The notes under the pieces are model-generated. The model worked only from the letters and a program-made list of their open reading frames with translations. It was not told the origin of the DNA and ran no database searches. A stretch of DNA of 64,000 bases from an uncultured Gammaproteobacteria bacterium (GTDB lineage Bacteria > Patescibacteriota > Microgenomatia > Daviesbacterales > UBA10151), in the NCBI GenBank assembly GCA_964422835.1, contig CAYRCR010000001.1:22030-86029 (forward strand). The letters are read 5' to 3'. A program made the translations under genes and the position numbers. Below are positions 42,972-63,996 of this stretch, in pieces (within the stretch, counting starts at the first letter, position 1; every line of letters starts with the position of its first letter).

Positions 42972-43371
42972 CTTTTTTTACTGATTTATTAAAAATAACC
43001 TCAACTATCATAGTCCCTACCCCAACTACCAAGGCCTCATAAGCATAAACTGCTGTTCTTTCAGCCCAAATATTTACTCCAGCTACCCGTAAGAAAGCGG
43101 CGAATAACCAAAAAAGCCCGGTTAGTATAAACACTCCATTGCTTTTAAATTTTAAGAGGAATATTAATAAAATAAGGCTCACCATAACTATCAGGTTAAT
43201 ATTAATTTCAAAAAAGGGGGCAAAATAACCCGCAGAACGAAGAAGTAATAAGGAAATTAAAACAAGGTTAAAAATAAATATTCCTAAAATATTTTCATTT
43301 GCCCACCTTTTTAATATGTCGAGGTTATTCAAATATAATTTCTTAGCTGCCTTTTTCATATTTTCTCCCAA
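42949..43371 (-). CDS. Small 4-TM membrane protein (GtrA-like flippase subunit?).
   Basis: 140 aa, four hydrophobic helices, translationally coupled to flanking GT-C genes. The family assignment is speculative. Confidence 0.35.
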   Translation of the reverse strand: MGENMKKAAKKLYLNNLDILKRWANENILGIFIFNLVLISLLLLRSAGYFAPFFEININLIVMVSLILLIFLLKFKSNGVFILTGLFWLFAAFLRVAGVNIWAERTAVYAYEALVVGVGTMIVEVIFNKSVKKDETKNSK

Positions 43372-48044: not shown

Positions 48045-49710
48045 TTATTTTGCTTTTCCCTCTTTCAGAGGAATATATTTTATTAAGTTCTGGAATTATT
48101 GTTTCATTGTCCATTAAAATATTCAGGTTTTCATCATTTGCCAGCTCTAAATCCCAAGCTAGGATATAATCAACATTGTTAATTTTAGCATAATCCAAAA
48201 GTTTCGGTAAAGATACTTGCGGCATATAAATTGTTTCCCCTTCCGTATAAAACTCTACCCCCTCGTGTCTCATCATTATTTTTAGGTTTTTATGGGGAAT
48301 GTTTTCTTTAATCCAATCGCTTACTTCAATAATCTCCTTATTTTCATGAATTGACGTTAACTTATCGGCATATTGATATGGTTCTGTTATATTTTTTAAG
48401 GACATCGAGGGAAGAAGGAGGGTGGTTAAAAATGGCACCAGAGCCGCAATTTTAGCAAATCTCGGAAAATACAAAAAAATATTATAAAACCCCAAATAAA
48501 ATAAATAAAGTAAAAAAGGGAATGACCAAAGAAGATATCGGATGTCAAATGTAGGTGTTGAAAAAATGATTACAGGAATAGAGATGCACATAATAGAAAA
48601 GAGATATATAAGTGGAATAAACATCTTTTTTCTAATTGCCCCAAAAAGGCCTATGACAGTAAGAGGCCAAAACCATAATGGAAATATAGATAAATATATT
48701 TTTTCCCAGTGCAGTAATTTCCGGTTAAATGAATTTAAATAAATATAAAATCTATTTAACATAATGCTCGCACCATTTTTGAAATATGGGGATTTATAGT
48801 TGGGGAATTTAGCAGACGCTACTTCTTGAGCCCATGTTTTACCATTTGAGCGAAGCTCAAAAACCTGGCCTTGCTGCATTTGGGCTGAAAACTTTTGCGA
48901 AAGTGTCCATTCCCCAAGCTGAATTCTTAAAGCTATTGTATAAGGAGAAATAACGGCTAGGAATATAGCCGCGCAGATTAAGATCGTCCGCAATTTCCTG
49001 CTAATTATTTTTTTATTCGAGGAGTATTGAAAAATCCAGTAACCAAGAAGGAATATGACAGTAAGAGAGAAGAACATCAAACCCTCTGATCTCGTCAAAA
49101 AACTTAAGCCAAATATTAGTGAACTAGCCATCAAATTTCTTTCAATATGCTTTTGGGAGAAAAGAGCCAGAAAAATAAGAACAACCGCAGAAGTAATCAA
49201 AAAAATAAATAAGGCATCGGATAAAGCAATAAAAGTTACATCCATCAAAGGCACAAACATAAGAAGACTTAGACAAAAAAGGAAGGCATGAAATTTTGTT
49301 AAGCTCTCTTTCACCAAAAAATAAAATGGGATTAATAAAATGGACGCGGAAATAAACGAAATTGACCGCAGTGATAATTCCCATGTTGGTATTATGAAGT
49401 GAATCAGTGCGGAAACTGCCGGGAACAATGGAGGCCAGGTTGGATGAAAAAAATATGCAAACTGTCCCCTTGATAAAGCTTTCGCTAAACTGGCGTAAAC
49501 GGCATCGTCGGAATAGAAAGTATAACCAGAATTCAAAAGGATAATAAGCCGCGAAGCAATTATTAAAGTAGTAGCCAAGAAAAGAACGATGAATAAAATG
49601 TTTATTTTTATTTTGAACATATGAGTCTTTATTTTTTTATAGTAATTTCCTGGTTTCAGAACTGGTATCATGAAGTCCATCTTCAAAATATACAAATGTA
49701 AAAACATCAT
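48025..49710 (-). CDS. Polytopic membrane GT-C-type glycosyltransferase candidate.
   Basis: 'SGYTFYSDDAVYASLAKAL' acidic motif after helix 1; 561 aa with a roughly 130 aa soluble C-terminal domain. The likely true start is the Met of 'MFKIKINILF' (about 49620). Confidence 0.5.
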   Translation of the reverse strand: MMFLHLYILKMDFMIPVLKPGNYYKKIKTHMFKIKINILFIVLFLATTLIIASRLIILLNSGYTFYSDDAVYASLAKALSRGQFAYFFHPTWPPLFPAVSALIHFIIPTWELSLRSISFISASILLIPFYFLVKESLTKFHAFLFCLSLLMFVPLMDVTFIALSDALFIFLITSAVVLIFLALFSQKHIERNLMASSLIFGLSFLTRSEGLMFFSLTVIFLLGYWIFQYSSNKKIISRKLRTILICAAIFLAVISPYTIALRIQLGEWTLSQKFSAQMQQGQVFELRSNGKTWAQEVASAKFPNYKSPYFKNGASIMLNRFYIYLNSFNRKLLHWEKIYLSIFPLWFWPLTVIGLFGAIRKKMFIPLIYLFSIMCISIPVIIFSTPTFDIRYLLWSFPFLLYLFYLGFYNIFLYFPRFAKIAALVPFLTTLLLPSMSLKNITEPYQYADKLTSIHENKEIIEVSDWIKENIPHKNLKIMMRHEGVEFYTEGETIYMPQVSLPKLLDYAKINNVDYILAWDLELANDENLNILMDNETIIPELNKIYSSERGKSKIIIYELL

Positions 49711-51343
49711 CTGGTGTTAGGCCTGGATTTTGTTTCAGCAAATCCGGGATTTCATCTATCGTCTGGGGTAAAATAATATTATCTTGATTGGTATAATAAT
49801 GAACAGCAAAAGCTACCTCTGACCCGAAATAACCTACTCTTGAGGCATCCCCCACTGCAAAATCCAACTTCTGATTTGCCCCCTTCATGAAGATTACTTT
49901 CTTTGATTTAATTTCAGGTATATAAATTTTCAAGTCCTGAAAAATTTTTTTGGAATGCCTGCTATAATCATTAACAAAAGTCTGCTGGCTCAAAAAGGAA
50001 GCTGTTAGGCGTAATGAAATAATTATTGCTATAAAACCAATAAATAAAAATTTGGCTATTATTCTTTTCGCATAAGTCCCCTGGAAATATTCCTGGGATA
50101 CAAAAATGATTGGCAATAGGGCGGGGACAAAGGAGGGTAAAAGAAGATAGCGATTATAACTTACTAAAACCCTTTCTGGTATCGAAATAAAAAAAATTGA
50201 GTTGATGCCAAAAATTGCTACCAAACTGAAAATTGATAAAAGTTTGTACTTGGACATATTCATAAAGATCCATAATAGCAAAAAAGATAAAAAGATCCCT
50301 CCATTAAAAATTGATGCCAAATCATATTTATAAATATTAATCCGAAAAAGAAGGATCGCCAAAAATACTGATAAAAGCAAAAACATAATTAATATTTTTC
50401 CAAATAACGCAAAATTATAAATTTTTGGTCTCAAAAGCTTTAAAATAAGAAGTGAAACCAAACTGACGATTAAAGCAGGCAAGCCCGAAAGGTAAAACCT
50501 TAATAAATTGAACTCACTTCCCGGTAAACCAAGTTTTCGATAGAATAATTCCTGAAAATCGGACGGGAAAATCATGTTCCAAAATGTTCCTAAAGGGTTT
50601 AATAAATATAAAGGGAAAAAATTTATGAGTAATCCCAAATAATTGCCCCCGGGGGGGATTTTGTAACCTAAAACCCACGATGACGGGTGAATAAAATACT
50701 GGACTAAAAAAATGGATATAAAGGAAAAACATCTAATAATCAACCCCCAATTCCATTTTCTCCATGAAATTACCAAATCCAAACTAATCAAAAAAATTAT
50801 TGACCCAGCAACTCTATGGGGTGCAATCTCCAATGTTAGGAAAAAGAATATTAGAGTAAATAGATAATAAATTTTCCTATGATTGTTGAGATATTTTAAA
50901 AAAAATAATAAAGTAATAAGCAGTACAATTAACGACATTATAGCGCTAAAACAATCCAGAGTCATTTTCATATCATCCTGGCCAATATACCCTACTGCAA
51001 AAATAAGTGTTGAGAAAAGGGCTATTTTTGAATCTTTGAATAAATTAGAGAGAAATTTAAATAGAAGTCCCGCAGCAAAGGCATATAGAATTATCACTGC
51101 CATAAAATAAATTTCAGTTCTCATTCCAAACATCCGCCATGCCAATAAGTCCAACAATTGGGTAATTTGATAAGGATAGGCAAACAATCCCTTTTGTAGT
51201 AAATCCGGGTGTTGCGCAAAATACAAGGCAGCGTAATCATCCCGCCAGAAATACATCTGGAGTAGTTGATGGTAAGACAAAAATACAACACCTGAAAGGA
51301 GTATATATGGAAACAGTTTCTTGCCAAATTGTAATATATTCAT
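49637..51343 (-). CDS. Polytopic membrane GT-C-type glycosyltransferase candidate. First member of the tandem triplet.
   Basis: 'QMYFWRDDYAALYF' motif; 568 aa with more than 12 helices. Confidence 0.5.
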   Translation of the reverse strand: MNILQFGKKLFPYILLSGVVFLSYHQLLQMYFWRDDYAALYFAQHPDLLQKGLFAYPYQITQLLDLLAWRMFGMRTEIYFMAVIILYAFAAGLLFKFLSNLFKDSKIALFSTLIFAVGYIGQDDMKMTLDCFSAIMSLIVLLITLLFFLKYLNNHRKIYYLFTLIFFFLTLEIAPHRVAGSIIFLISLDLVISWRKWNWGLIIRCFSFISIFLVQYFIHPSSWVLGYKIPPGGNYLGLLINFFPLYLLNPLGTFWNMIFPSDFQELFYRKLGLPGSEFNLLRFYLSGLPALIVSLVSLLILKLLRPKIYNFALFGKILIMFLLLSVFLAILLFRINIYKYDLASIFNGGIFLSFLLLWIFMNMSKYKLLSIFSLVAIFGINSIFFISIPERVLVSYNRYLLLPSFVPALLPIIFVSQEYFQGTYAKRIIAKFLFIGFIAIIISLRLTASFLSQQTFVNDYSRHSKKIFQDLKIYIPEIKSKKVIFMKGANQKLDFAVGDASRVGYFGSEVAFAVHYYTNQDNIILPQTIDEIPDLLKQNPGLTPDDVFTFVYFEDGLHDTSSETRKLL

Positions 51344-53439
51344 TTTGTTTTATAGATATTAATTTCATTTATGACCCAAGGTGCATATTCGTGGTCACCA
51401 ATTTGTGTGATATTAACAAAACGGCTCTTGTAAGGGCTAAAATATAAATCTGTGCGGCCGTTTTTTGGGGGAAAAAGCTTCTCATAGAAGACTTCCTCCC
51501 ATATTTTCCCATCCTTGGAGAGTAAAACCTGATAGCCATTCCTATTTTGGTCTTTATTCCCCACGGAATTTATCTCAATTCGTGCAAGTTCGTAGATATT
51601 TCCCATATCTATGGTAAAATCCTGGGGATTTTCAATTGGCAGTTTCGAATCCCAAAAAGTGGTCTGTGAATTATCCAGCATCAGAAAAGAATCGTGATTA
51701 TTGCTTGAAGTTTCGATATTCCAGCCAACTTTTGGCATCACCTCTTTTTCTGCCAGAAAACTAACCAGTCGACCTCGAATTTGCAATGTGGTGTCCGTAA
51801 ACATCCCTTTCTCACCATCATAAGAAAAAGCAATTACAGAATCGGAAGAAATATAATTCTGCCTAATAGTCATACTCATCAAATTAAAATCACGAAAATA
51901 TCCAAATCCACGTCCCGCAAACTCTTTATAACCCTGATCGGTTAGATTCCAAAGAAACTCATTTTTAAAAAAATCCACTGTGAAATATTCAGTTGGATTG
52001 TAAATAATAAGAAGTAGTTGTCCGAACCCTGATTGAAAAGGCATTATTCTTTCATCTTCTGACGAGCCATAAAACGAAGAGTCACTATTAGTATAAAAAA
52101 TTGTTTTTTGTTGTAATTGTGGATATGAATTCACTATTTGACTGATAATTGATTTCCTTATTTGTCCAATTTCAACCAGCTTATCTACTGTTTTCCTCAA
52201 TGAAAATATATGGAAAGATAGCGCGACTGATAAAGCAAGAAGTCCTAAAATTTTAATTACCATTTTTTTAGTAGAGACTATCCATATTACTAATGACCCC
52301 ACGATTAAACTCAAACCCACTGTAGCCGGATAAAGGTATCTCGAATCCACATAGGTCAAATATCTATTGAGTACAAGAAGTGGTAAAATTGTAAATGAAA
52401 TAATTCCTACGCCCCAAAAAAGCAATTGTTTCACCTCAATCTTTCGGCTAACCCGCCATATTAAGGCTACAAACAGAAACCCTAAGGGAATTGTTAAAAG
52501 ATCATACCTAAAACCATTTTCAATTGTCCATGGCCCCCGCGCCAAGTATTGGTATATATTAAAGGGAGAAGTTGTCATATTAGATATATATACCAAGACT
52601 TCATTTGGGAAAAAAATCTGGGGAAAGATTTTAAAGATGGATGTGAGGAAATTATACCCAAGGATTAAAACACGATCATCCCCGGATTGGATGCCCGAAA
52701 CCTGGGCAACTCTTACATTAAATAAAAGATACGCAAACCGAAATAGCGAATAGAGGGTTAGTACTAATACTATTGATACTGCACCAATAATCTTTAATCT
52801 AACTTTCTGGCTAAAAAGTATAATTAATCCCAAAGTTAACAAAAATGTTAATGCAGTCTCTTTAAAGAGTAGACTTATAAGCAATAAACTAAAAGTTAAT
52901 AATAAAAACTTGAATCTTTTTTTTTCAATATATAAAAGATACGAAACAAGCGACATTGAGCCAAATAATACTGAAAATTCTACCCCTTCAAAAGTGCCAA
53001 TCCAAGTAACTGCTTGGTAATGGCTACTATTGACTGCAAAAAAGATCGATCCTAGAAACGCTGGAAATTTTTTCTTTGTTAACATAAAAATTAGCAAATA
53101 AACAGAAACTGATACTAAAAAGTGGATAAAAACACTCACCATAAAATATGAAGCTGCGTTTAATACAAATAGCCGATACAAACTCATTTTAAAAATTAAG
53201 GATAGGGGGGCAAAGTGAAAAGGGAAATCGCTGATGAGCATATTTCCTAAAAACTCCATTCCCTTTAAAGACAAAAGAAAGTTATAATTTCCAAAACTAT
53301 GCCATTCATCCTGCTCAAAGTATGAATTCCAAAGCCCTAAATATGCAAGGATAGCACCTCCCAAAATAGTAAAAAGAATAATTAGAAAAGGTGCATCTTT
53401 TTGAATCCTTTGAAAGTTTTTCCAACTATTTTTGACCAT
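51340..53439 (-). CDS. Polytopic membrane GT-C-type glycosyltransferase candidate with a C-terminal F5/8 type C (discoidin)-like domain. Second member of the triplet.
   Basis: 'NSYFEQDEWHSFGNY' motif. C-terminal 'TTFWDSKLPIENPQDFTIDMGNIYELARIEINSVGNKDQNRNGYQVLLSKDGKIWEEV' has the discoidin pattern (W...Q...DLG....v..i.i.......Y.v..S.DG..W). 699 aa. Confidence 0.5.
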   Translation of the reverse strand: MVKNSWKNFQRIQKDAPFLIILFTILGGAILAYLGLWNSYFEQDEWHSFGNYNFLLSLKGMEFLGNMLISDFPFHFAPLSLIFKMSLYRLFVLNAASYFMVSVFIHFLVSVSVYLLIFMLTKKKFPAFLGSIFFAVNSSHYQAVTWIGTFEGVEFSVLFGSMSLVSYLLYIEKKRFKFLLLTFSLLLISLLFKETALTFLLTLGLIILFSQKVRLKIIGAVSIVLVLTLYSLFRFAYLLFNVRVAQVSGIQSGDDRVLILGYNFLTSIFKIFPQIFFPNEVLVYISNMTTSPFNIYQYLARGPWTIENGFRYDLLTIPLGFLFVALIWRVSRKIEVKQLLFWGVGIISFTILPLLVLNRYLTYVDSRYLYPATVGLSLIVGSLVIWIVSTKKMVIKILGLLALSVALSFHIFSLRKTVDKLVEIGQIRKSIISQIVNSYPQLQQKTIFYTNSDSSFYGSSEDERIMPFQSGFGQLLLIIYNPTEYFTVDFFKNEFLWNLTDQGYKEFAGRGFGYFRDFNLMSMTIRQNYISSDSVIAFSYDGEKGMFTDTTLQIRGRLVSFLAEKEVMPKVGWNIETSSNNHDSFLMLDNSQTTFWDSKLPIENPQDFTIDMGNIYELARIEINSVGNKDQNRNGYQVLLSKDGKIWEEVFYEKLFPPKNGRTDLYFSPYKSRFVNITQIGDHEYAPWVINEINIYKTK

Positions 53440-55081
53440 TATGTGTTGATACCTCCAATTCCTCTCTTGCCTGCTTTGTATTATCTATGAGAGTTTTTGA
53501 TCCAGCCAGATAGATATAACTAATGACTGATGAGGAGGACAAGTTATTTTTTTTTACTGCTTCTTTCAGACGCTCCATGTTCCGGAAATAACCAAACCCC
53601 CTCTCCCCTTTCTCGAGATATCCTTCCTCTGTCAGTCTATACAGGTATTCAGATTCCTCAACTAATGGCTTTAGCGAAAGCTCTGATGGCAAATACCAAA
53701 CCATTAAAGTTCTCCCTAGATTCGTCTCAAATGGAAAAATCTTCTCGGACACTGGAAGCCCATAAAATGGAGTATCGCTAATCATAAAGAAAACTGCTTT
53801 TTGTGGCAAGTTTGGGTAATCTATTTTTATTTTAGATAAAATCTCCTTTCTCTCTGCACCCTGGGCAGTTGAAATACCAAGCTCTGACTTTAACCCAATA
53901 AAGTTTATCACTAAAAAGGGTAGGACAATAAGCGATATTAATAACTTTCTTCCATTTGAAATCAAATGTGCAGCCGAAACTAAAAAAACCGCGCTACCCA
54001 AAGAAGGTAGATAAATATTGCGTGAATCCACAATTGGTATACTTCCAGATCTACCTGGAGATAAAACATATATAAAACTATTTAAGACAACAAATAAAAA
54101 ACCGAAAATTAACGCTTTTACCACCATTCTATCTTTTGATTTCTTAACTAATAAAATTAGAAGAATTATTCCTGCAGCAAAGATAGTCCAGTCAACTACC
54201 TGCAGGGTAACATTTTCTACAAAGACATCAAAGGAGGTAGTGCCATACAAACCAGTTGAAGATAGTGGAAGCAATTTTGTAATTATCTTTGCTATCCTCA
54301 ACAGATCAATAGTGGGAATAAGTGATTGAGAAAATATCTTTGCAGGAAAAGATAATAAATTGTTTATGATATCAGCAAAAGATTGTGTTTCAAGAACAAC
54401 GCGGTCCTCAATGTTTGACTTTCCAAAAAATATCATTAAAAAACGGAAAAGAAAATAAAAGAAGCCCGCGAGGGCTATCTTTACATAGTTTGACCAATTT
54501 TTTTTAAGTTTTTGTTTGTCATATATATAAATCAAAAGGAATAAGAGTAAAATAAAAGCAACTGTTATTTCTTTAAATAAAAGAGAGATGAGAAAACTAG
54601 TAATAGCTAACCAAATTTTATTAAATTTAGAATTTATAAAAAAAATGAGAGCAAGGAGCCCGAAGATTGTTGATCCATGCGTATTTATATCCGCCGCGAT
54701 CCAGGATGTTGCCTGATATCCCGATGCCTCTACAGAAAAAAATAAACCTGCTAATAGACCCAAAAAATAACTTTTAAAGAGTTTTGAAAATAATATACAG
54801 GAAAGAAAGACAACGATAAGATGTGCAAAAATGCTTGATAGCGCATACCAAAAAAAATTAAGTTCATATACGGATAGATAAAGATGAAGGAGTAAATCTG
54901 TAAAAGGTGTGTAGTGGGAAATTGCAGGTTTAAAAACAGAGATTAGACTCTTATCTGAAGTAAGGAAGAACCCAAAAGCCCGCCATTCATCATGCTGGAA
55001 AAATCCTCCCGTAATTGGGAAATAAGCTACAAATGTAAAAATTAAGATTATAAAAAGTAAAGCAACATCAAATTTCTTCAT
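53426..55081 (-). CDS. Polytopic membrane GT-C-type glycosyltransferase candidate. Third member of the triplet.
   Basis: 'GGFFQHDEWRAFGFF' motif. C-terminal 'FYGLPVSEKIFPFETNLG...EEGYLEKGERGFGYFRN' is colinear with 'FYGSSEDERIMPFQSGFG...DQGYKEFAGRGFGYFRD' in the 51340 ORF. Confidence 0.5.
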   Translation of the reverse strand: MKKFDVALLFIILIFTFVAYFPITGGFFQHDEWRAFGFFLTSDKSLISVFKPAISHYTPFTDLLLHLYLSVYELNFFWYALSSIFAHLIVVFLSCILFSKLFKSYFLGLLAGLFFSVEASGYQATSWIAADINTHGSTIFGLLALIFFINSKFNKIWLAITSFLISLLFKEITVAFILLLFLLIYIYDKQKLKKNWSNYVKIALAGFFYFLFRFLMIFFGKSNIEDRVVLETQSFADIINNLLSFPAKIFSQSLIPTIDLLRIAKIITKLLPLSSTGLYGTTSFDVFVENVTLQVVDWTIFAAGIILLILLVKKSKDRMVVKALIFGFLFVVLNSFIYVLSPGRSGSIPIVDSRNIYLPSLGSAVFLVSAAHLISNGRKLLISLIVLPFLVINFIGLKSELGISTAQGAERKEILSKIKIDYPNLPQKAVFFMISDTPFYGLPVSEKIFPFETNLGRTLMVWYLPSELSLKPLVEESEYLYRLTEEGYLEKGERGFGYFRNMERLKEAVKKNNLSSSSVISYIYLAGSKTLIDNTKQAREELEVSTHNGQK

Positions 55082-55101: not shown

Positions 55102-56127
55102 TTAAATTTTTGACAGGAGATTTTTTATAAGCTTTACAACAAAACCCCTCCCTTGAGGTCTAGACACAAAACCCCAGACTATTGCATCAGTTGTAGTCAT
55201 TGCAACAATAGGGTGCCATAAAAAGGCAGGGTCTCTATGTTTGATTGTACGTAACACTCCTCTGATTAATTCAGGAATAAACAAGTTTGCATATGCAACC
55301 CAAAAGAAAATCTTTAAGAGATCCTTTCTCTTTTTTGGATCAAACCACAAATAATATTTATGGTTCAAATTTGGAAGATAATCCCTTTCCAAATTTCTTA
55401 GTCTTTTTATAATCAACAATTTTAGATTTTCAGCATGATAATGCCTTATTTTTGCTAGGGGGACATAGGCAAAGAGTTGATGTCCAGCCCTCGCAACTAT
55501 CTCTATACTCTCTAAATCTATAAATGACTTATCTTTCCCAACTACTGTTTTTAAAAGTTCCTTCCGGCGGTATAAAATCCTCCCCATTGCAGGTATTTTC
55601 CCAGGGGTAAAATTGCAAAGGAAATATTTTTCCCTTTTTTCAATGACCGTACTTGCTATTGAAGGCGAAAAAAAAGCGTAGAGAGGATCCTGCATTAAGG
55701 GATGGTGTGCAATAAACCGCAAAAGAGAACTCTTAACTCGAGGTTTTGTCTCTATAGAAAACTCTTTAGTAAAACTTCCTATAATTTTTTTATCTTCCAA
55801 AAGAGGGTTTGCAAGTAATTCAAAAAAATTATTACAGCAGACTTCCATATCAGCATCAAACCAGTAAACTAAATCATTTTTTGCTGCATGCATTCCAATC
55901 CCTTTATTAAGTTCAATATCATGCGTTTTAACATTTAGAATCCGCGCTCCAAATTTTCGGGCTAACTTTTCACTATTATCATTTGATCCATCGTTTACCA
56001 CGATATATTCAATTTTATTTCTAGGATATGTTTGACTTTTTAAAGAATTAAAGAGTCTTTTTAAATTGTCCTCTTCATTAAAAACCGGAATAATTGCGGA
56101 AATACTAGGTAGCACTTTTTTAAGCAT
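55102..56127 (-). CDS. Glycosyltransferase family 2.
   Basis: 'ISAIIPVFNEEDNLKRLFNSL...IEYIVVNDGSNDNS...YWFDADMEV'; 341 aa. Confidence 0.8.
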   Translation of the reverse strand: MLKKVLPSISAIIPVFNEEDNLKRLFNSLKSQTYPRNKIEYIVVNDGSNDNSEKLARKFGARILNVKTHDIELNKGIGMHAAKNDLVYWFDADMEVCCNNFFELLANPLLEDKKIIGSFTKEFSIETKPRVKSSLLRFIAHHPLMQDPLYAFFSPSIASTVIEKREKYFLCNFTPGKIPAMGRILYRRKELLKTVVGKDKSFIDLESIEIVARAGHQLFAYVPLAKIRHYHAENLKLLIIKRLRNLERDYLPNLNHKYYLWFDPKKRKDLLKIFFWVAYANLFIPELIRGVLRTIKHRDPAFLWHPIVAMTTTDAIVWGFVSRPQGRGFVVKLIKNLLSKI

Positions 56128-56160
56128 AATGCTATTATATCTCTAACCTTTAAAGGCAGT

Positions 56161-57612
56161 ATGAAAGTTCATTTTATTATCCCTTCTAACACAGAAAAAG
56201 GCAAGCGAGAAGTTTTAGATAAAATATTTGGATGCCACTATGGTTATTTTCCACAACACAATATTTTTACACTAGGTCTTACCGCAGTAATAAAAAAAAT
56301 GGGTTATGAAGTTGAGATGTCAGATTGTGCAATTGAAAAAATAACTTTAAACGATGCTCTGGAAAGAGGAGGGGATGTTTTTATATTTTATTCAGTTTTC
56401 TTAAGTAGGGAAATTGATCTTTGGGCTGCAGACCAAATCAAAAAAAAGCTTGGTAAAAAATGGATGATCTTTTTAGGTAATGATCCTGTTTTCTTTTCGG
56501 ATAAATATCTGATTTCGCAAAATCATATTTTAATCCGTGGTGAACCTGAAGAAACAATTGTTGATTTATTAAAAGAATTAGAAAAAAATAAACCTGTTTT
56601 TAAAAAAGTAAAGGGAATCAGTTGGGTAAGCAGAGGGAAAGTTATTCACAATACTCCAAGAAAATATATCGAAGATCTTGATAAGTTACCTCTTCCCGAC
56701 CGAATGATTCTTAAAAAACCATTGGAGTACTCAAATGCCCGTTTTTCTAAATTTCCCTCTACAACCATGTATACGTCCAGGGGCTGTGCATACAACTGTC
56801 TATTCTGCTTCCCAAACTCCTTTAGTTTTGCCAGAGAGTTGGAATGGAAAAATGTCCATAAGGTTAAACCTCCAGTAAGAGTTAGATCCTCAAGAAGTGT
56901 CATTAAAGAATTTGAGCAAATACATAAACAGGGTTTCCGCTCTGTTTCAATAGTTGATGATCAGTTTCTTTGGGATAGAAGAAGAACAGAAGAAATCTTT
57001 AAAGGAGTCAAAAAATTAAACATGGAAATTTCGATTCTGGCCCGTTGTGATAGGATAACTGACTATCCTCTAGTTAAAATGATGTTTGACGCAGGAGTAA
57101 GACATATTGCTTTTGGAGTAGAATCTTTTAACCAATCAATACTTAACTACATTAGAAAGGATTTAAAGGTAGAAACTATTGCCAAAGCAATAAAATGGTG
57201 CAAAAAAGCAGGTATAAAACCGGAAATTAATATAATTTTGGGAAGCTGCCCGTTGGAAACAAAAGAAACAATTGCCAATACAATAAACGAAGTTGAAAAA
57301 TTAAATGTTGATATAATTCATCTAAACATTATCGCCCCTTTCCCTGGTACGGATTATGCCAAACTTGCTAAGGAAAAAGGATGGATGACAGTAGATGAAT
57401 ATATACCGATTGACCCTGCTGCCCAAAGTTTAATCTCATATCCACATTTAACTGATAAGGATTTAGTCAAAGCAGTAAAGGGATTTATTTTTAAACATTA
57501 CTTTTCGCCTAAATATATCCTTAGAAATATCTCCAAAGTTAAATCACCAAACGAACTTTGGAACAAGATAAAAGCAGGTGTCTATGAATTTAAACTTCTT
57601 TTAATAAAATGA
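56161..57612 (+). CDS. Cobalamin (B12)-binding domain radical SAM enzyme.
   Basis: N-terminal Rossmann-like B12-binding region ('VFIFYSVFLSREIDLW...MIFLGNDPVF'), followed by the radical-SAM cluster motif 'YTSRGCAYNCLFCF' (CxxxCxxC). 483 aa. Confidence 0.75.
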   Translation: MKVHFIIPSNTEKGKREVLDKIFGCHYGYFPQHNIFTLGLTAVIKKMGYEVEMSDCAIEKITLNDALERGGDVFIFYSVFLSREIDLWAADQIKKKLGKKWMIFLGNDPVFFSDKYLISQNHILIRGEPEETIVDLLKELEKNKPVFKKVKGISWVSRGKVIHNTPRKYIEDLDKLPLPDRMILKKPLEYSNARFSKFPSTTMYTSRGCAYNCLFCFPNSFSFARELEWKNVHKVKPPVRVRSSRSVIKEFEQIHKQGFRSVSIVDDQFLWDRRRTEEIFKGVKKLNMEISILARCDRITDYPLVKMMFDAGVRHIAFGVESFNQSILNYIRKDLKVETIAKAIKWCKKAGIKPEINIILGSCPLETKETIANTINEVEKLNVDIIHLNIIAPFPGTDYAKLAKEKGWMTVDEYIPIDPAAQSLISYPHLTDKDLVKAVKGFIFKHYFSPKYILRNISKVKSPNELWNKIKAGVYEFKLLLIK

Positions 57613-58622
57613 GTATATTCCCTTCAGCTACTATCATAATTCCTACCTTAAACCGCAAATATGTTTTAGAAGAAGCTCTTTTGTCATTAAATAAAGTTGA
57701 TTACCCAAGAGATCTACTTAAAGTAGTAGTAGTTAACGACGGTTCATCGGATGGAACAAAAGAACTTCTTAAGAGAATTAAAAACAGATTAAACTATGAA
57801 TTCAGGTCTTACAATGAAAAGAGAAAAGGGATTTCTCACGCTAAAAATACAGCAATCAAAAAGTCCAAGGGAGAAGTAATTATTTCAACAGATGATGATT
57901 GTTTATTTGAAAAAACATGGCTTAAAAAATTAATTAAGCCATTAGAGAATGATTCTGTAGGCTCTGTTGGAGGACCTGATCGAGCTATTAAAGATGAACA
58001 TGTGCTGGCTAAAAGTGTTGATTTCGCTTTTTCTAGTTTTATTGGTTCAGGAGGAATTCATGGGAGATTTTTAAAAGTAAAACTTGGTAAGTTCTACCCT
58101 CCTGGATGTAATATGGCATTTAAGCGTAAACTTGTTAAGCAAATAGGTTTTTTTGATGAAACCTTGGCACCTGGAGAAGACACGGATTATAATCATAGAA
58201 TAGAAAAAGCTGGATATAAATTAATTTATGTCCCCACAGCCTTTGTCTGGCATAGACCGAGAAACAGCATCAGAAGGTTTATCCCTTATATCTTTAAAAG
58301 AGGAAAGGCAAGGGTGGAAATTATCCGACGCTATCCAGAATATAAAGAATACATATATTATCTTCCAGCAATTATTGTGGTAGTTGGTTTTCTACTTCTT
58401 TTATTATCATTTGTTTCACCAATTTTCCTTATAACCTTTGCAATCCTAATATTATTCTACACTACACTACTTGTTAGCGCTGGGCTTTCTGCCTACAGAA
58501 CCTACCACAATCTGGCATACTTTTTTATAGTTCCACTACTAATCTTCCTTCAGCATACATTTCATGGAGTAGGATTTATAAAAGGGGTCTGGGACTTTTA
58601 CTTCAAGTCCAAACTAGACTGA
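57609..58622 (+). CDS. Glycosyltransferase family 2 with C-terminal TM helices.
   Basis: 'ATIIIPTLNRKYVLEEALLSL...LKVVVVNDGSSDGT...ISTDDDCLFE'. Two C-terminal hydrophobic helices. Its start overlaps the upstream radical SAM stop (ATGA). Confidence 0.8.
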   Translation: MSIFPSATIIIPTLNRKYVLEEALLSLNKVDYPRDLLKVVVVNDGSSDGTKELLKRIKNRLNYEFRSYNEKRKGISHAKNTAIKKSKGEVIISTDDDCLFEKTWLKKLIKPLENDSVGSVGGPDRAIKDEHVLAKSVDFAFSSFIGSGGIHGRFLKVKLGKFYPPGCNMAFKRKLVKQIGFFDETLAPGEDTDYNHRIEKAGYKLIYVPTAFVWHRPRNSIRRFIPYIFKRGKARVEIIRRYPEYKEYIYYLPAIIVVVGFLLLLLSFVSPIFLITFAILILFYTTLLVSAGLSAYRTYHNLAYFFIVPLLIFLQHTFHGVGFIKGVWDFYFKSKLD

Positions 58623-58641
58623 GGCTGATATTCTAAAAACA

Positions 58642-60183
58642 TTATGTCCCTAATAAACCATCTGATAGCCCTAATTGTTTAAGAAAATACGAGAGACTCA
58701 ACTTAAAAAATCTTTTTGGTGAATGGAATAAAATAGAAACAGCGAGTTTAACTTTTGCAAAGGGGATAGTCTGGTTTACTCTTATCGCTTTTTTGAAAAG
58801 TTTTTTTACCTCTGTTCTTGAGAGGAAAGGCGTTTCAATTATTGGTTCACCAGTACTTAAGCCTTTTACAAAATTACCGGTTTCTTTATTTGTCAACCAA
58901 CCATTGTTAACCGCAATTTGATAAGCTTCAGTCCCGCGATGTGGAACCAAAACACCGAAACCACAATCATTTACTCCAAGTTTTTTTAACTCACGGGCAT
59001 ATTTTATTGTTTTCTCCACCTGATTTTTCTTTTCCCCAGGCATACCAATCAAAAAAAAGGCATCTACCGGGAGCCTATACTTCCGGCACCAATTGACAAC
59101 TTGTTTTACTTTTTTTAAATTCAGCTTCTTATGCATCAAGTTATCTACCACCCATTGGCTACCGGATTCAGGAGCAACAATTGTTCTTGTGCACCCTGAT
59201 TGCTTCATCTTCCTAACCAACTCCTCATCAACTGTATCAGCCCGTATTCCATTGGGAGTACTCCATTCAATTTCCCATCCTTTCTCGATTATTTTATCGC
59301 ATATCTTTTTTGCCCTTTCTTTATTTAGGGTAAAATTATCATCTTCAATATCGAAATGTTGAATTTTATATTTTTTGATCAAATAATCCATTTCAGCAAT
59401 AACATTATCCACACTTCTTGGCCTAAAAATCCTTCCCATAACTAAATGGCCTGCACAAAAAGCACAGGTAAATGGACAGCCTCTGCTGGTAAAAATAGTC
59501 GCCCATCTTCTGCCAAATGTAGAAATACTGCGGGAAGACCTTACATTTCTGGCAGCTTCAAAATATTTATCCATGGGAAACAGCTCCCACGCAACACGAT
59601 ATCTATCCAAATCAGTTAAAGGTAATCTTGTTGTATTTACAATTGTTTTTCCTTTTTTTTTAAAAATTAGCCCATGAATTTTACTGTATTTATTACTCTT
59701 TCTCTTAATAGCTTTAGTCAACTCCAACATAGTTAATTCTCCTTCCCCTAAAACTGCAAAATCGATATTGTTATCATCCAATATTGTTTCTGCGTACGCA
59801 GTGGGATAAGCTCCGCCAACAACTACTTTTATATCTGGGTTAACTTCTTTAACAACCATTGCTATTTCATGACCAGCTTTAGATTGTGCAGTAAAAGGCA
59901 TCGTTATACCTACAATGTCTGGAGTAATTCTTTTAATTCTTTTTTTTATTTCAGTTTTATTCAATCCTACATAGCGATTTGATCCCTCGTCCACAAATTC
60001 CTCATGGTCATTTCCTTCTGCCAAAATATCAAAAATTTTGACATTTATATTGTTATCCAATAGATGTCCTGCAATATACCCTAAACCTAAAGGTTGGAAG
60101 GCGTTCAACGGGTAATTTATATTAGCTGGAGTAAATTGACCGGGATTAATTAAAAGAACTTTCATTGGTATATTATATATCAC
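58642..60183 (-). CDS. Cobalamin (B12)-binding domain radical SAM enzyme. Second copy, distinct sequence.
   Basis: 'VLLINPGQF...LGLGYIAGHL...DIVGITMPFTAQ' B12-binding/Rossmann region and 'FTSRGCPFTCAFCAGH' CxxxCxxC motif; 513 aa. Confidence 0.75.
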   Translation of the reverse strand: MIYNIPMKVLLINPGQFTPANINYPLNAFQPLGLGYIAGHLLDNNINVKIFDILAEGNDHEEFVDEGSNRYVGLNKTEIKKRIKRITPDIVGITMPFTAQSKAGHEIAMVVKEVNPDIKVVVGGAYPTAYAETILDDNNIDFAVLGEGELTMLELTKAIKRKSNKYSKIHGLIFKKKGKTIVNTTRLPLTDLDRYRVAWELFPMDKYFEAARNVRSSRSISTFGRRWATIFTSRGCPFTCAFCAGHLVMGRIFRPRSVDNVIAEMDYLIKKYKIQHFDIEDDNFTLNKERAKKICDKIIEKGWEIEWSTPNGIRADTVDEELVRKMKQSGCTRTIVAPESGSQWVVDNLMHKKLNLKKVKQVVNWCRKYRLPVDAFFLIGMPGEKKNQVEKTIKYARELKKLGVNDCGFGVLVPHRGTEAYQIAVNNGWLTNKETGNFVKGLSTGEPIIETPFLSRTEVKKLFKKAIRVNQTIPFAKVKLAVSILFHSPKRFFKLSLSYFLKQLGLSDGLLGT

Positions 60184-60184
60184 T

Positions 60185-62203
60185 TCACTTAAAAATTAAT
60201 GCCTTGGCAGAAGTATAGTTTAGAGGACAAGCATTTGTATTTTCAAACACAAAGCTTGCATACCTTGCCTCTTTTCCGGCAATAAAATACTCTATTTCAT
60301 TCGCACTTATATTTTCTTTTTGTTTGATTTGTCGAAATGGAATTGGATCTTTTTCTCGAGTCCAGCTTGATCCATCTTGTGAGATTTTAACAAAAGCTGC
60401 CTTTGGTGTTAAACATCCCGACAAAGGATTAAAAAATAAATATAGCCTGCTGATCGGAACAATTTTACCAAAATCCAGCATAATTTGGTTATCCGATGTC
60501 TTATCTATCAAAGGATTTGGTAATTCCACTTCGTTTTTTTTCGACATTTCTCTGGTGTGCTCAATGTCATTTTTCCAAACTTTTAGTATTGGGACACCGT
60601 CAACTTTTAGTTCATAAACCGGATATAAAAAGTTCTCCACATACTCCCAAGCATAGTTAAAGTCGCGAGTTGAGTCATTAAAAGTTAAATCCATAAGATA
60701 CTCTCCTTCACGCACTATCCCGCTCAAATTCCCAGATTTGAAGTCAATATCTTTCCTTAAAAAAATCACCGGCGCGTTAGCGGCCGTACCCTGAATTAAG
60801 GATAATCTACTATTATTTTCTACATTCTCGTTTACCCATTTTATCCCCTGAAAGTAAGCATTGCCAAAACTATTTCCCCAAGAAGGGAAATTTTTTTCAT
60901 AAGCACCAGGTAAACCTCCTATTAATGAATTAAAATAAACATTTTCATAAGGATGAAGTTTTATCAAAATCCATAAAGGCCAAATAAAAATGATCATTAA
61001 TACAATTTTAACAACTAATCCCTTATTAATTTGTGTAATTTGCCATGCACCAAGACCCGAAAGCAAGGCCATTGCCGGCAAAAATTCCATTATTTGTCTG
61101 ACACCACCATAAATAACGGTCCCGGGTAGCGTAACCCTTAAAAGGGGCACCACAAGCCACAAAAGCCATAATAATGTCAGTTGTTTTTTCTCCCCTTTTA
61201 AGGCAAAAAGGGACAATAAGCCGAAAAAGAATAAAATAAGTATTAAGGGTGGGGTAGTAAATATAATCCAAAGAACCGGAAACATATTAAAATTATGAAA
61301 ATAAAAATTATCGGGCTGGTAATGGAAATTTGTACCAATTTCCCGGTAATATCCAAAAATACTTTGTAAATTCCAAACATTCTGCCAAAGATAAGGCCAT
61401 GAACCTAAAAATATTAATCCTACAATAACCATCCCCCCCAAAAACCCCAATATCATTTTTTTCGGAAAAATTTTATGTAAGTTTAGGGGTAATAAAAGCT
61501 TCTTCCTGTATCTCAACAAAAGATAGGGAATAATTATCGCCGGTAGGAATAATATATTAAATTTGGTTCCTAAAGCTAAGGAAAAAAATACCGATGAAAT
61601 CAAAAGCCAGCGGATACTCCCTTTTTGCAAAGCCTTCCAGAAAGCCCAGATGCATCCTGTAAAAAAAGCTGCTTCCGGAGGATCCTTAATATTAAAGTGA
61701 GATTCGGACCAAAAAAGAGGATAGGTTACAAGTGCCAAAAATGATACGAAGCTTGCAAAAACACCCATTGTCTCCAAGGCAAAAGAAACCACAACAAAAA
61801 CAAAGAGTGATGAAGCCAGAATATTAAACAGATGGTGCGCCTCAATATCTCCTAAAACCCCTAATTTTTGAAAGAAAATAAAATTTGACAGGGCTGCCAA
61901 TTCATCATTTAAAGGGGGATGCCCGCTATCATTCTTTAACATATATTCGCCGTTATATAGATCACTCTGATAAAAACTTCGCCTTGGAATGGCAATTTTG
62001 TTTGGATCACCATTAGTACCCTGTAGATCCACTTTAGGCAAATCATCATATGTTGTTTCTCCAGTTAAAAAATAGCGCAGGTAGGCCTGTCCTCTATAAA
62101 AATGCAAAGTTTCGTCCCAGGAAATTCCATAATGAGGAAGGGTAAAAAGTGCGGAGAAAAAAAAGACAGTTGCAAGTAATATTGGAATAAATTTCTTCAT
62201 CAA
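60185..62203 (-). CDS. GT39/ArnT-like membrane glycosyltransferase with an extracytoplasmic C-terminal domain. Paralog of the 37467..39467 gene.
   Basis: 'HYGISWDETLHFYRGQAYLRYFLTG...NDSGHPPLNDELAAL...GDIEAHHLF' and 'FNSLIGGLPGAYEKNFPSWGNSFGNAYFQ...VYELKVDGVPILKVWKNDIEHT'; 672 aa. Confidence 0.65.
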   Translation of the reverse strand: MMKKFIPILLATVFFFSALFTLPHYGISWDETLHFYRGQAYLRYFLTGETTYDDLPKVDLQGTNGDPNKIAIPRRSFYQSDLYNGEYMLKNDSGHPPLNDELAALSNFIFFQKLGVLGDIEAHHLFNILASSLFVFVVVSFALETMGVFASFVSFLALVTYPLFWSESHFNIKDPPEAAFFTGCIWAFWKALQKGSIRWLLISSVFFSLALGTKFNILFLPAIIIPYLLLRYRKKLLLPLNLHKIFPKKMILGFLGGMVIVGLIFLGSWPYLWQNVWNLQSIFGYYREIGTNFHYQPDNFYFHNFNMFPVLWIIFTTPPLILILFFFGLLSLFALKGEKKQLTLLWLLWLVVPLLRVTLPGTVIYGGVRQIMEFLPAMALLSGLGAWQITQINKGLVVKIVLMIIFIWPLWILIKLHPYENVYFNSLIGGLPGAYEKNFPSWGNSFGNAYFQGIKWVNENVENNSRLSLIQGTAANAPVIFLRKDIDFKSGNLSGIVREGEYLMDLTFNDSTRDFNYAWEYVENFLYPVYELKVDGVPILKVWKNDIEHTREMSKKNEVELPNPLIDKTSDNQIMLDFGKIVPISRLYLFFNPLSGCLTPKAAFVKISQDGSSWTREKDPIPFRQIKQKENISANEIEYFIAGKEARYASFVFENTNACPLNYTSAKALIFK

Positions 62204-63996
62204 TTCTCTACAAATTTCTTAATTAGCCCCCTATCGCTGATTTCATTAAAATCCAAATTCCGAAGACTTATGGATTGGATTTCTATCTTAACTGGCGCTC
62301 CTGGCACACTTATTTTAAGGTCTTGAACAACCGTTCCACCAGTGTCCAACGGTAATTCATATATATTTTCACGATCAAGATTACCTACGGTAATCTTTTT
62401 TAAATTCTTACCTTTATTAGTATTCCAGTTGATCTCAATATTTAAAAGAGGTGCAATATTTTTCAAGATTAAATTTAACTCCTCTTCATTGGCAATAAAA
62501 TCAAATGGTGAATCCAGAAAAGAAAAGGCATCTGCAAGATCAATATCATTGTAAGCAGACTCTACCACCTCTAATTCAGTTAGTGCAGGCGCATCATTTA
62601 CTAAGGTTTCAGTAATATCCATCCTGACATACCGTCCCTCAATCTCATCAAATGCATCTGTTACTATTTCTCCACTTTTCCTTTCTGGACCATGAACAAC
62701 TTTTTTTACATCCTCCCATTTATTTTTATCTTTAGAAACACTTATTACATATGATGTGGGTGTTAAGGTATTATTCCAGTTAGTCCAGATAAGTTTCCCT
62801 ACTCTTTTAATCCTGCCTAAATCAAGAGTAATTTGCTCTTTCTGGTGTTCATGCCAAAAAATTCTATGACCACGCCAACTGGTATTAATATTATTATCCA
62901 CTGCGTTTTCCGTTTCCTGATACTTCCACTGTGATAGACTGGATACTTTAACATTGCTGTAATATTCCTTTCTAGATAAAAGATAGGCAATAATTTCCTC
63001 TTTTTCTCCTACGGTTTTTGTGCTGAACTTCTTGCCACTTGGAGAATAGGGATATGTGATATTTGATATATCAGGCATAATTTTAGCTTTTAAATTTAGT
63101 AATAATGGAGATACCGAGGAGATTTTAATGTTATCCCTTAAAATAGATATAAGAGATGGCGATTCATGTTTTAATGATAACGCTTGAGATTCTGAACCCC
63201 TTGTAAGCGAGTTCCTAACTTCATTAGTTGTGTCTTCCAAACCATTTTCACCAAAATAAAAACTGTGGATATTATTAATGCCAATTTGTTTAGTTGAAAT
63301 TTTATAAAGCAATTCATTAAAATTTTCAGTCAAGGCAATATCATAACGGTCAACTCCATAGTAGATTGCAAGAGCTGTGGATTCAGGCATAGACCCAACA
63401 GAAAAGAAATCTATAAATTGTTGTTGATAATATCTTTTATCAATTACATCAAAAAAGAAAATGTCACCCTTTTGAACATTGGGCACATAATTTTTCAAAT
63501 TCTTATAAAAGGCCTCAGTTGGGCGGCTTATATTTTTTATAATTTTATTTTGATATATAACTCCCAAAAATAAATTAACTCCGATAAATAAAAATAACGG
63601 TGTAACCGCTAATAAATAGGTAAACTTCCCAAAATTATTACTTTTAACTACTTTTTCAAATATCGCAAATGTTATTCCACCTATAATAATACAATAACCA
63701 ATAAAACTATAAGATAAATACCTATGAGTTGTGGCAAAAATAGCATCTTGGTACTGAATAAAATAGCCTAAGAACTGTGATATAACTACGATAATACCTA
63801 AAATTAAGGCTATTGATAATTCTTTCATTTTTTTCCATAAAACTAAGGCTAAAAATCCAGCCAGCACAGGAATATACATCCCCAATGCTCCAGCGCTAAT
63901 ATCCAAACCTATTCTATACCAAAAAAAATTTTTCGTTATAAAATAACAATTTAAAAAGAAGATGCTAGTAAATACCGAAATACTTGTTATTTTCAA
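62200..63996 (-). CDS. Polytopic membrane protein with a C-terminal F5/8 type C (discoidin)-like domain. The ORF reaches the right edge of the window, so the real N-terminus may lie beyond it.
   Basis: The N-terminal approximately 150 aa are hydrophobic helices. 'NNINTSWRGHRIFWHEHQKEQITLDLGRIKRVGKLIWTNWNNTLTPTSYVISVSKDKNKWEDV' is a good discoidin-domain pattern. The first Met lies 4 nt from the window end. Confidence 0.5.
   Translation of the reverse strand: MKITSISVFTSIFFLNCYFITKNFFWYRIGLDISAGALGMYIPVLAGFLALVLWKKMKELSIALILGIIVVISQFLGYFIQYQDAIFATTHRYLSYSFIGYCIIIGGITFAIFEKVVKSNNFGKFTYLLAVTPLFLFIGVNLFLGVIYQNKIIKNISRPTEAFYKNLKNYVPNVQKGDIFFFDVIDKRYYQQQFIDFFSVGSMPESTALAIYYGVDRYDIALTENFNELLYKISTKQIGINNIHSFYFGENGLEDTTNEVRNSLTRGSESQALSLKHESPSLISILRDNIKISSVSPLLLNLKAKIMPDISNITYPYSPSGKKFSTKTVGEKEEIIAYLLSRKEYYSNVKVSSLSQWKYQETENAVDNNINTSWRGHRIFWHEHQKEQITLDLGRIKRVGKLIWTNWNNTLTPTSYVISVSKDKNKWEDVKKVVHGPERKSGEIVTDAFDEIEGRYVRMDITETLVNDAPALTELEVVESAYNDIDLADAFSFLDSPFDFIANEEELNLILKNIAPLLNIEINWNTNKGKNLKKITVGNLDRENIYELPLDTGGTVVQDLKISVPGAPVKIEIQSISLRNLDFNEISDRGLIKKFVEN

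Follow-up and report, generated by a model that had tools for sequence, protein, structure and literature searches.

A 64,000-nt stretch of contig CAYRCR010000001.1 (the window), from a bacterium placed by GTDB in the Microgenomatia, carries two genes for radical S-adenosylmethionine (radical SAM) enzymes, designated rSAM-A and rSAM-B, with a gene for a family 2 glycosyltransferase (GT2) between them. The three open reading frames (ORFs), their convergent layout and the ATGA overlap that translationally couples rSAM-A to the GT2 were found at the coordinates assigned in the initial annotation (Table 1). The CxxxCxxC motif of rSAM-A lies exactly where it had been placed, and that of rSAM-B was located at 59455-59478. 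The same annotation had described the two enzymes as non-identical, the GT2 as membrane-anchored and the surroundings as a glycan locus. These descriptions agreed with the 26 % identity of rSAM-A and rSAM-B across 356 aa, with three C-terminal hydrophobic segments in the GT2 and with the presence of a Wzx-like flippase and many PMT_2 genes for GT-C glycosyltransferases. The stop codons of rSAM-B and the GT2 are separated by 19 nt. The likely start of rSAM-B is the ATG at 60165 (MKVLLINPG) rather than the GTG at 60183; a 507-aa database homolog 100 % identical to rSAM-B (P0121) begins at this ATG, as does the family alignment. A GT-C gene lies immediately upstream of rSAM-B on the same strand and belongs to a conserved four-gene block described below.

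Table 1. Features of the window discussed in the text (positions in the 64,000-nt window)
Feature	Position	Strand	Details
rSAM-A, class-B-type radical SAM enzyme, HpnJ-like	56161..57612	+	ORF, 483 aa
N-terminal Rossmann-like (B12-binding-type) domain of rSAM-A	56161..56640	+	AlphaFold model, hhalign
CAYNCLFC, [4Fe-4S] motif of rSAM-A, C209-x3-C213-x2-C216	56785..56808	+	invariant in 20/20 family members
Family-specific insertion directly 3' of the Cys motif (PNSFSFARELEWK...)	56812..56880	+	motif comparison
ATGA overlap, rSAM-A stop/GT2 start (translational coupling)	57609..57612	+	sequence aaaATGAgt
GT2 partner, membrane GT-A glycosyltransferase	57609..58622	+	ORF, 337 aa
rSAM-B, class-B radical SAM enzyme	58642..60165	-	507 aa; ORF reaches GTG at 60183
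CPFTCAFC, [4Fe-4S] motif of rSAM-B, C230/C234/C237 invariant	59455..59478	-	family alignment
Cobalamin-pocket motifs of rSAM-B: G86-x-T88 (β3 loop), G117-G118 (β4), G142-E143 (α5 start)	59737..59910	-	
PMT_2-type GT-C, 672 aa, at least 8 hydrophobic segments	60185..62203	-	PF13231 at 7.5e-11
Second GT2, 341 aa	55102..56127	-	PF00535 at 8.4e-20
Bac_transf phosphoglycosyl transferase	6644-7288		glycan locus of the window
Wzx-like flippase	30822-32129		glycan locus of the window

rSAM-A and the GT2 constitute a conserved two-gene unit, found from gut Bacteroidales to DPANN archaea, whose product is probably an unusual modified sugar. In 56 of 66 loci the gene of the rSAM-A family had a same-strand GT2 gene at most 500 nt away, and in 48 of these the GT2 lay downstream, as in the window. 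With stricter gene calls an adjacent same-strand GT2 was recorded for 46/62 rSAM-A genes vs 37/588 of the remaining genes in these loci (odds ratio 43, p 6e-34). Clustering of the neighbours from 63 non-redundant loci placed GT2 in 49 of them and the next commonest cluster in 9. The distance matrix of the partner GT2s correlated strongly with that of rSAM-A (Pearson 0.93, Mantel p ~0.001). The 4-nt overlap of the two genes recurred in a Pacearchaeota locus (L004), in L086 and L097, and in other loci from the candidate phyla radiation (CPR) and from metagenomes. The loci with the unit came from CPR, DPANN, Omnitrophota, Brocadia, Bacteroidales and Methanosarcinales.

The GT2 of the window matched PF00535 at 2e-27 (96.6 bits), PF13641 at 7.9e-20 and PF13506 at 9.2e-8, and contains DDD at residues 95-97 (nt 57891-57899). 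Since its three hydrophobic segments occupy residues 246-324 (nt 58344-58580) at the C-terminus, it is reasonable to call the protein membrane-anchored. The closest solved structure was 6YV7 (E 5.8e-18), a membrane GT2 acting as a mannosyltransferase on dolichyl-diphosphate-linked intermediates (PMC12715860).

The four-gene block (GT-C followed by rSAM-B, convergent with rSAM-A followed by the GT2) was syntenic in Blackburnbacteria contigs (L086/L087), at 60-76 % amino-acid identity and with different flanks; the GT-C encoded there is 60 % identical to that of the window. These close Microgenomates relatives were the only ones among the 66 rSAM-A loci with a true rSAM-B ortholog beside rSAM-A. 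rSAM-B was rejected as a conserved partner of rSAM-A, the pairing being absent outside close Microgenomates, and the paired cobalamin methylase module originally envisaged held only in part. In 5 of 7 distinct loci, and in the window as well, an rSAM-B ortholog directly followed a gene for a GT-C, GT2 or GT4, so rSAM-B appears to be coupled to glycosyltransferases without a fixed partner family. The distribution bears on a rival explanation, in which both rSAMs are cobalamin-dependent C-methyltransferases paired with the GT2 and methylating a sugar or the carrier: synteny of the triad in Blackburnbacteria fits this proposal, but two loci out of 66 do not. Its remaining evidence concerns the cofactor and the nearest relatives of rSAM-A, considered below.

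Membership of both enzymes in the radical SAM superfamily is based on a confidently modelled PF04055 barrel and on Cys triads invariant in both family alignments. rSAM-A matched PF04055 at 8.1e-21, and PF02310 was not reported in the Pfam search of the window protein, with PF02310 matches precomputed for many of its homologs. In rSAM-B PF04055 was found at 9.5e-20 and PF02310 at 3.5e-16 (59.6 bits vs cutoff 32.1). The two-domain Pfam signature expected of both proteins was therefore complete in rSAM-B alone, PF04055 being common to both. Comparison of the rSAM-A and rSAM-B families with hhalign gave a probability of 100 % and E 1.6e-60 over columns 3-446, which include the PF02310 region of rSAM-B, and the cobalamin domain of OxsB aligned with the rSAM-A family profile from residue 149. 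The AlphaFold model of rSAM-A (predicted local distance difference test score, pLDDT, 90.0) has a five-strand Rossmann domain with strands at residues 2-7, 50-55, 73-77, 101-105 and 122-125. A conserved FGC(N/H)YG loop is located at residues 22-27, and pLDDT was low across loop 19-29. The rSAM-B model had a pLDDT of 88.6. No match to the SPASM domain (PF13186) was obtained in Pfam for either enzyme. Both proteins display the class-B architecture predicted for them, a Rossmann domain modelled together with a radical SAM barrel; profiles and models found the B12-type fold in each and placed neither with the SPASM maturases.

The insertion that directly follows the Cys motif of rSAM-A was not present in HpnJ, BchE or rSAM-B in the motif comparison, and its residues P218, N219, R225 and E226 are invariant in the 20-member family alignment (A1; mean column identity 56 %). 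No hydrophobic segment was detected in either rSAM. An amphipathic C-terminal helix of rSAM-A was considered as a membrane anchor and found unconvincing, with a hydrophobic moment of just 0.34. The rSAM-A family comprises ~25 representatives (50 %-identity level) scoring above 400 bits, within a superfamily of ~9,500 representatives at E <=1e-30. Its members come from CPR, DPANN archaea, Omnitrophota, Brocadiales, Planctomycetota, Bacteroidales, Methanosarcinales and others. In a neighbour-joining (NJ) tree the family formed a clade in 18 of 50 bootstraps, and the deep nodes were poorly supported. In its sister clade in that tree (L066-L081, 27-33 % identity) a conserved YGCWCxGxR replaces FGC(N/H)YG, which from the sequence suggests an extra Cys pair. 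Another homolog, P0258 (842 aa), carries an intein (Intein_splicing plus LAGLIDADG homing endonuclease) right after the third cysteine of CxxxCxxC.

Public databases label members of the rSAM-A family 'Mg-protoporphyrin monomethylester cyclase' or 'YgiQ family'. Among those bearing the former name, together with many homologs, is P0001, a 383-aa partial protein from a 'Microgenomates group bacterium GW2011' record that is 100 % identical to rSAM-A and marks the source of the window as a CPR bacterium. Such names would make rSAM-A the anaerobic Mg-protoporphyrin monomethyl ester cyclase BchE; a related proposal, to which weak matches of methylase models lend something, is that the genes encode maturases of peptides that are ribosomally synthesised and post-translationally modified (RiPPs). 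The BchE model (TIGR02026) gave 96 bits for rSAM-A and 171 bits for rSAM-B vs a cutoff of 481, so the name BchE is wrong for the rSAM-A family and the public names constitute a widespread misannotation. The window contains no tetrapyrrole genes, its context being entirely glycan-related. Besides the missing SPASM domain, the neighbours include no conserved small ORF or peptide-processing gene. A BchE or RiPP identity is effectively refuted by the model scores together with the gene context.

The highest NCBIfam scores of rSAM-B, all below cutoff, were 219 for Sden_1168, 171 for BchE and 168.9 for HpnJ. P-methylation, hinted at by the best of these models, Sden_1168, is unlikely for rSAM-B, as the score was far under the cutoff; no phosphonate genes turned up in the window, which also counts against it. 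Six relatives of rSAM-B at 40-42 % identity (P0215, P0216, P0223, P0228, P0233 and P0240) are ~860 aa long and contain, as a fusion, another radical SAM domain together with SPASM. The window rSAM-B itself has no such SPASM-rSAM fusion.

Three motifs of the cobalamin pocket are defined by the OxsB, TsrM and TokK structures: G/A-x-S/T-x-X on the β3-α3 loop, Gly-Gly at β4 and Gly-Glu at the start of α5 (PMC9204698). In the rSAM-B family G86, G117, G118, G142 and E143 are invariant in 22/22 sequences and T or S occupies position 88 in 17/22. These positions align with OxsB G182-x-S184, with A-x-S of TokK and with the GG and GEGE motifs. Because all three pocket motifs are kept, rSAM-B is regarded as a probable cobalamin enzyme. 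It shares the G/A-x-S/T, GG(PH) and GEGE motifs and the fold with TokK, OxsB, TsrM and MgmA (QCMT), but the identity is 17-24 %, their C-terminal domains are missing from it, and the known substrates differ (carbapenem, oxetanocin, tryptophan and a glutamine of methyl-coenzyme M reductase (MCR), respectively).

The alignment of rSAM-A with the same pocket departs from the cobalamin consensus at two of the three motifs. Its β3 loop reads V/I75-F76-Y77-S78-V79, with no Gly or Ala and with Tyr where Ser or Thr is expected. At β4 there is one small residue, at position 106 (G13/A5/S2), as in OxsB. P129-E130 aligns to the α5 Gly-Glu of OxsB, and G127-E128 is found two residues upstream. AprD4 and ArsL lie inside the B12-rSAM sequence network yet bind no cobalamin (PMC12931638, a 2026 review), so a B12-type fold alone is insufficient to infer cobalamin binding. 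Cobalamin binding by both rSAMs, as first proposed, would follow from the fold; the proposal gains from the three motifs kept in rSAM-B and loses from the two replaced in rSAM-A. No cobalamin transport or salvage genes turned up among the ORFs of the 64-kb window. Since the Rfam scan of the window gave no matches, there is no cobalamin riboswitch there either. The organism probably has to scavenge cobalamin.

Neither rSAM reached the cutoff of any NCBIfam model. The highest score of rSAM-A was obtained with HpnJ (TIGR03471; 212.3 bits over residues 54-474), the next being BchE at 96, but the HpnJ equivalog cutoff is 577.6. HpnJ is genetically required for the bacteriohopanetetrol cyclitol ether and has been proposed to contract the ring of a glucosamine that is attached by the GT2 HpnI and deacetylated by HpnK (PMC13459092, PMC9204698). 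Like rSAM-A, HpnJ is a class-B-type radical SAM enzyme (~475 aa) whose gene adjoins that of a GT2 of Glyco_transf_21/2_3 character. In Burkholderia sp. PAMC 26561 hpnJ is followed by hpnI, which matches the order of rSAM-A and its GT2, and the order in Mycetohabitans is hpnI-hpnJ-hpnK. The annotated HpnJ of Burkholderia is 27 % identical to rSAM-A over 440 aa (E 7e-38), and the two share a C-terminal (S/G)YPHL motif that is missing in rSAM-B, BchE and other relatives. rSAM-A differs from HpnJ in having ESF and LGSCPLET instead of ESG and LG-LPGET, in its own insertion after the Cys motif and in its setting in a Wzx/GT-C surface-glycan locus. HpnK, squalene-hopene cyclase and other hopanoid genes did not turn up among the ORFs of the window. 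A functional analogy, by description and with no family membership implied, may be drawn with calditol synthase (Cds) of Sulfolobus, a radical SAM enzyme proposed to contract a lipid-linked glucose to a cyclopentyl head group (PMC13459092).

The best structural match for the models of both rSAM-A and rSAM-B was AprD4 (PDB 6FD2), a radical SAM 1,2-diol dehydratase of apramycin biosynthesis. The likeness, though high, reflects a shared fold and not family membership. Identity to the rSAMs is 20-22 %, the N-terminal domain of AprD4 is unaligned at the sequence level (the matches begin near residue 166 of rSAM-A and 220 of rSAM-B), and the AprD4 model (NF033070, cutoff 500) gave 85 bits for rSAM-A and 101 bits for rSAM-B. 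No AprD3-like reductase partner is conserved among the neighbours of the rSAM-A loci. AprD4 works without cobalamin (PMC12931638), and rSAM-B, by contrast, has intact cobalamin motifs.

MoeK5, GenK, GenD1 and Fom3 may be likened to the rSAMs by description, as enzymes of class-B architecture with sugars or glycosylated intermediates as substrates. They are encoded in secondary-metabolite clusters, as opposed to the surface-glycan locus found here, and compared with MoeK5, GenK and GenD1, rSAM-A is without two cobalamin-pocket motifs. MoeK5, Fom3 and HpnJ group together in sequence networks (PMC9204698). Methylases make up the majority of characterised class-B members, the sugar methylases GenK, GenD1 and MoeK5 among them (PMC9204698, PMC12931638), and this precedent, with the canonical motifs of rSAM-B, speaks for a pair of cobalamin-dependent C-methyltransferases. 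It does not extend readily to rSAM-A, which lacks the G-x-S/T and G-E motifs and whose closest relatives, HpnJ among curated families and the cobalamin-free AprD4 among structures, are non-methylases. With the scarcity of rSAM-B orthologs at rSAM-A loci, these points make the paired-methylase explanation unlikely. C-methylation, the chemistry first suggested for both enzymes, is retained for rSAM-A as one option among several, HpnJ being a proposed ring-contracting non-methylase. For rSAM-A, a rearrangement or elimination that adds no methyl group (ring contraction, deoxygenation or epimerisation) is somewhat favoured, and C-methylation would be the second choice, with a smaller though appreciable chance of being correct.

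A fusion protein gives a clue to the stage at which rSAM-A might act. P0253 (675 aa; L100:5991-8018), a member of the rSAM-A family, carries as a C-terminal fusion a Bac_transf (PF02397) polyprenyl-phosphate phosphoglycosyl transferase, which keeps its hydrophobic and likely re-entrant N-terminal helix. A GT-C gene directly flanks rSAM-A/GT2 in L004, L097 and L098, and in L086 and the window it is placed beyond rSAM-B. Taken together, the HpnJ precedent, the 6YV7 likeness of the GT2, the P0253 fusion and the GT-C neighbours point to rSAM-A operating at the lipid-linked stage of glycan assembly.

The explanation favoured here, with a probability of roughly 0.55, is that rSAM-A and the GT2 perform GT-coupled radical tailoring of lipid-linked sugars in a surface glycan and that rSAM-B is a separate enzyme. 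The membrane GT2 would attach a hexose to a lipid-anchored intermediate, either a sugar or a glycan linked to polyprenyl-(di)phosphate, and the 5'-deoxyadenosyl radical of rSAM-A would then take a hydrogen from that sugar, rewriting its carbon skeleton or functional groups. By analogy, the logic would be that of HpnI (GT2) followed by HpnJ (radical SAM) in hopanoid head-group synthesis. In CPR and DPANN the neighbouring PMT_2-type GT-C would probably move the modified lipid-linked sugar to its final acceptor outside the membrane, in the manner of ArnC/ArnD/ArnT. In the Arn system the polyprenyl-phosphate sugar produced by a GT2 is altered by a tailoring enzyme while on the lipid, and its transfer falls to a GT-C. 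This order parallels the GT-C/rSAM-A/GT2 trio of CPR and DPANN as an analogy of logic, ArnD being a deformylase, unlike rSAM-A. rSAM-B, of a different family and presumably co-transcribed with the GT-C, would most likely methylate a different sugar of that glycan at an unactivated carbon.

The P0253 gene is preceded, with a 4-nt overlap, by a carbamoyltransferase gene (L100). NodU/CmcH-type carbamoyltransferase genes were observed beside or near rSAM-A in six loci (L100, L062, L063, L097, L023 and L001) and not in the window. They recall moenomycin, in which the first sugar, the unit methylated by MoeK5, is also carbamoylated.

The same observations can be arranged in the opposite order, with the rSAMs working earlier on soluble nucleotide-activated sugars and the companion glycosyltransferase specialised for the resulting donor. 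The tight co-inheritance of radical SAM enzyme and glycosyltransferase equally fits such donor/transferase co-specificity, neither rSAM has a detected hydrophobic segment, and the partner GT2s of Bacteroidales are short (~250 aa) and apparently without the membrane region. Moreover, the class-B enzyme Fom3 has a nucleotide-activated substrate, cytidylyl-2-hydroxyethylphosphonate, and it clusters with HpnJ in sequence networks (PMC9204698). However, in the HpnI/HpnJ precedent the radical SAM enzyme follows the glycosyltransferase, both the phosphoglycosyl transferase fusion and the likeness to 6YV7 indicate a membrane stage, and a nucleotidyltransferase was not among the conserved neighbours. 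This donor-first order is accordingly considered improbable. A further rival has a lipid as the substrate, be it a membrane lipid or the polyprenyl carrier; the precedents would be the ladderane, glycerol dialkyl glycerol tetraether (GDGT) or hopanoid A-ring methylases. Many recently assigned radical SAM enzymes of the same architecture do have lipid substrates (PMC13459092), rSAM-B scored 132 bits with the lipid-biosynthesis B12/rSAM model TIGR04072, and both rSAMs weakly matched HpnR. These scores are far under the respective cutoffs (132 vs 360; 65 vs 650), the conserved neighbours are glycosyltransferases only, with no lipid-synthesis genes, and the family spans bacteria and archaea with very different lipids. 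Lipid modification is thus very unlikely.

Several findings weigh against tailoring at the lipid-linked stage by an HpnJ-like route. rSAM-A is only modestly close to HpnJ, its mean identity being 25.9 % to HpnJ and 25.7 % to rSAM-B, and the HpnJ model also gives rSAM-B 169 bits. The NJ tree did not place HpnJ as immediate sister to rSAM-A, and a clade of the two appeared in 0/50 bootstraps, so no specific sister relationship is claimed. Nor is the GT2 of the window orthologous to HpnI (23 % identity; 19.5 bits vs cutoff 310). The length of the Bacteroidales partner GT2, only ~250 aa, suggests that it lacks the region of the C-terminal membrane segments. A GT-C homolog adjoins rSAM-A/GT2 in just 5 of 65 loci, which makes the hand-off to GT-C lineage-specific at best; GT-C was rejected as a universal third partner on this count. 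The P0253 fusion is one sequence on one contig, and gene adjacency is silent on whether the radical SAM enzyme acts before or after the glycosyltransferase. For both rSAM families, the proposals on substrate, reaction order, cofactor and chemistry are inferred from what was observed, namely gene structure and neighbourhood, folds, motif and family comparisons and the fusion protein.

The region of the window from ~6.6 to 64 kb is nearly all one glycan locus of ~57 kb (6644-64000), which is unusually large. Apart from the phosphoglycosyl transferase and flippase genes listed in Table 1, it contains at least 10 PMT_2-type GT-C genes, together with GT4, GT2 and class I methyltransferase genes. 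The second GT2 gene is divergent from rSAM-A with a 33-nt gap between them. It is situated outside the conserved block, L086 having other genes in its place. Its product weakly matched the GtrB, ArnC and DPMS structures, and the hydrophobic-segment scan detected none in it. F5/8-type-C (discoidin) domains were found in three large proteins (51340-53439, 62200-63996 and the L086 homolog). Several window ORFs of 500-1000 aa had no Pfam match (43343-46432, 25624-28290, 39505-41490, 41484-42971, 49637-51343 and 53426-55081). The rsmH/mraW gene for a 16S rRNA methyltransferase (PF01795, E 4.7e-100) is located at 8399-9310 (+), on the opposite strand amid glycosyltransferase genes. The G+C content of the window was 0.32-0.40. 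Scanning of 55900-60400 for promoters and terminators revealed sites no commoner than in shuffled sequence, with no terminator in the 19-nt convergent gap, and the tRNA scan of the window gave no matches.

Other distinct class-B radical SAM subfamilies were observed to be translationally coupled to short GT2s (L097:1133-3348, L099:6198-8527, L001:14433-16340 and L088:1-4358), and some of these CPR/Omnitrophota glycan loci hold three radical SAM genes. Pairing of radical SAM enzymes with glycosyltransferases therefore looks general in CPR and Omnitrophota genomes. A class-B-type radical SAM enzyme with 27 % identity is also encoded on plasmid 1 of the pig pathogen Lawsonia intracellularis (L093; NC_008012.1; 27 kb). 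It is surrounded there by GT2 genes, galE, DUF2304 genes, a second radical SAM gene and five class I methyltransferase genes, giving the appearance of a small glycan-tailoring plasmid.

The literature search returned no paper on B12-rSAM genes in CPR or in polysaccharide loci, and the view that the arrangement had not been described was upheld. The rSAM-A+GT2 cassette is widely distributed and undescribed in the searchable literature, HpnJ/HpnI being its closest analogue. Radical-SAM tailoring of sugars is known chiefly from antibiotic pathways plus two lipid head groups, the hopanoid cyclitol ether and calditol, and to our knowledge neither HpnJ nor Cds has ever been reconstituted. The compact cassette offers a tractable route to learn sugar-directed radical chemistry, and rSAM-A and rSAM-B provide a side-by-side comparison for cobalamin binding by a B12-like domain. 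As the cassette occurs in CPR/DPANN surface-glycan loci and in gut and rumen Bacteroidales (Bacteroides, Prevotella, Muribaculaceae), it may expose unrecognised sugars in host-associated and environmental glycans. A bolder version, at present quite unlikely, is that the cassette represents a portable two-enzyme route to a ring-rearranged (carbocyclic/cyclitol-type) or skeleton-edited sugar on a polyprenyl carrier, with rSAM-A cobalamin-free in spite of its B12-like domain. If this were true, HpnJ/Cds-type chemistry would move from specialised membrane lipids into general surface glycans, and such glycans would be made by CPR bacteria, DPANN archaea, anammox bacteria and gut Bacteroidales.

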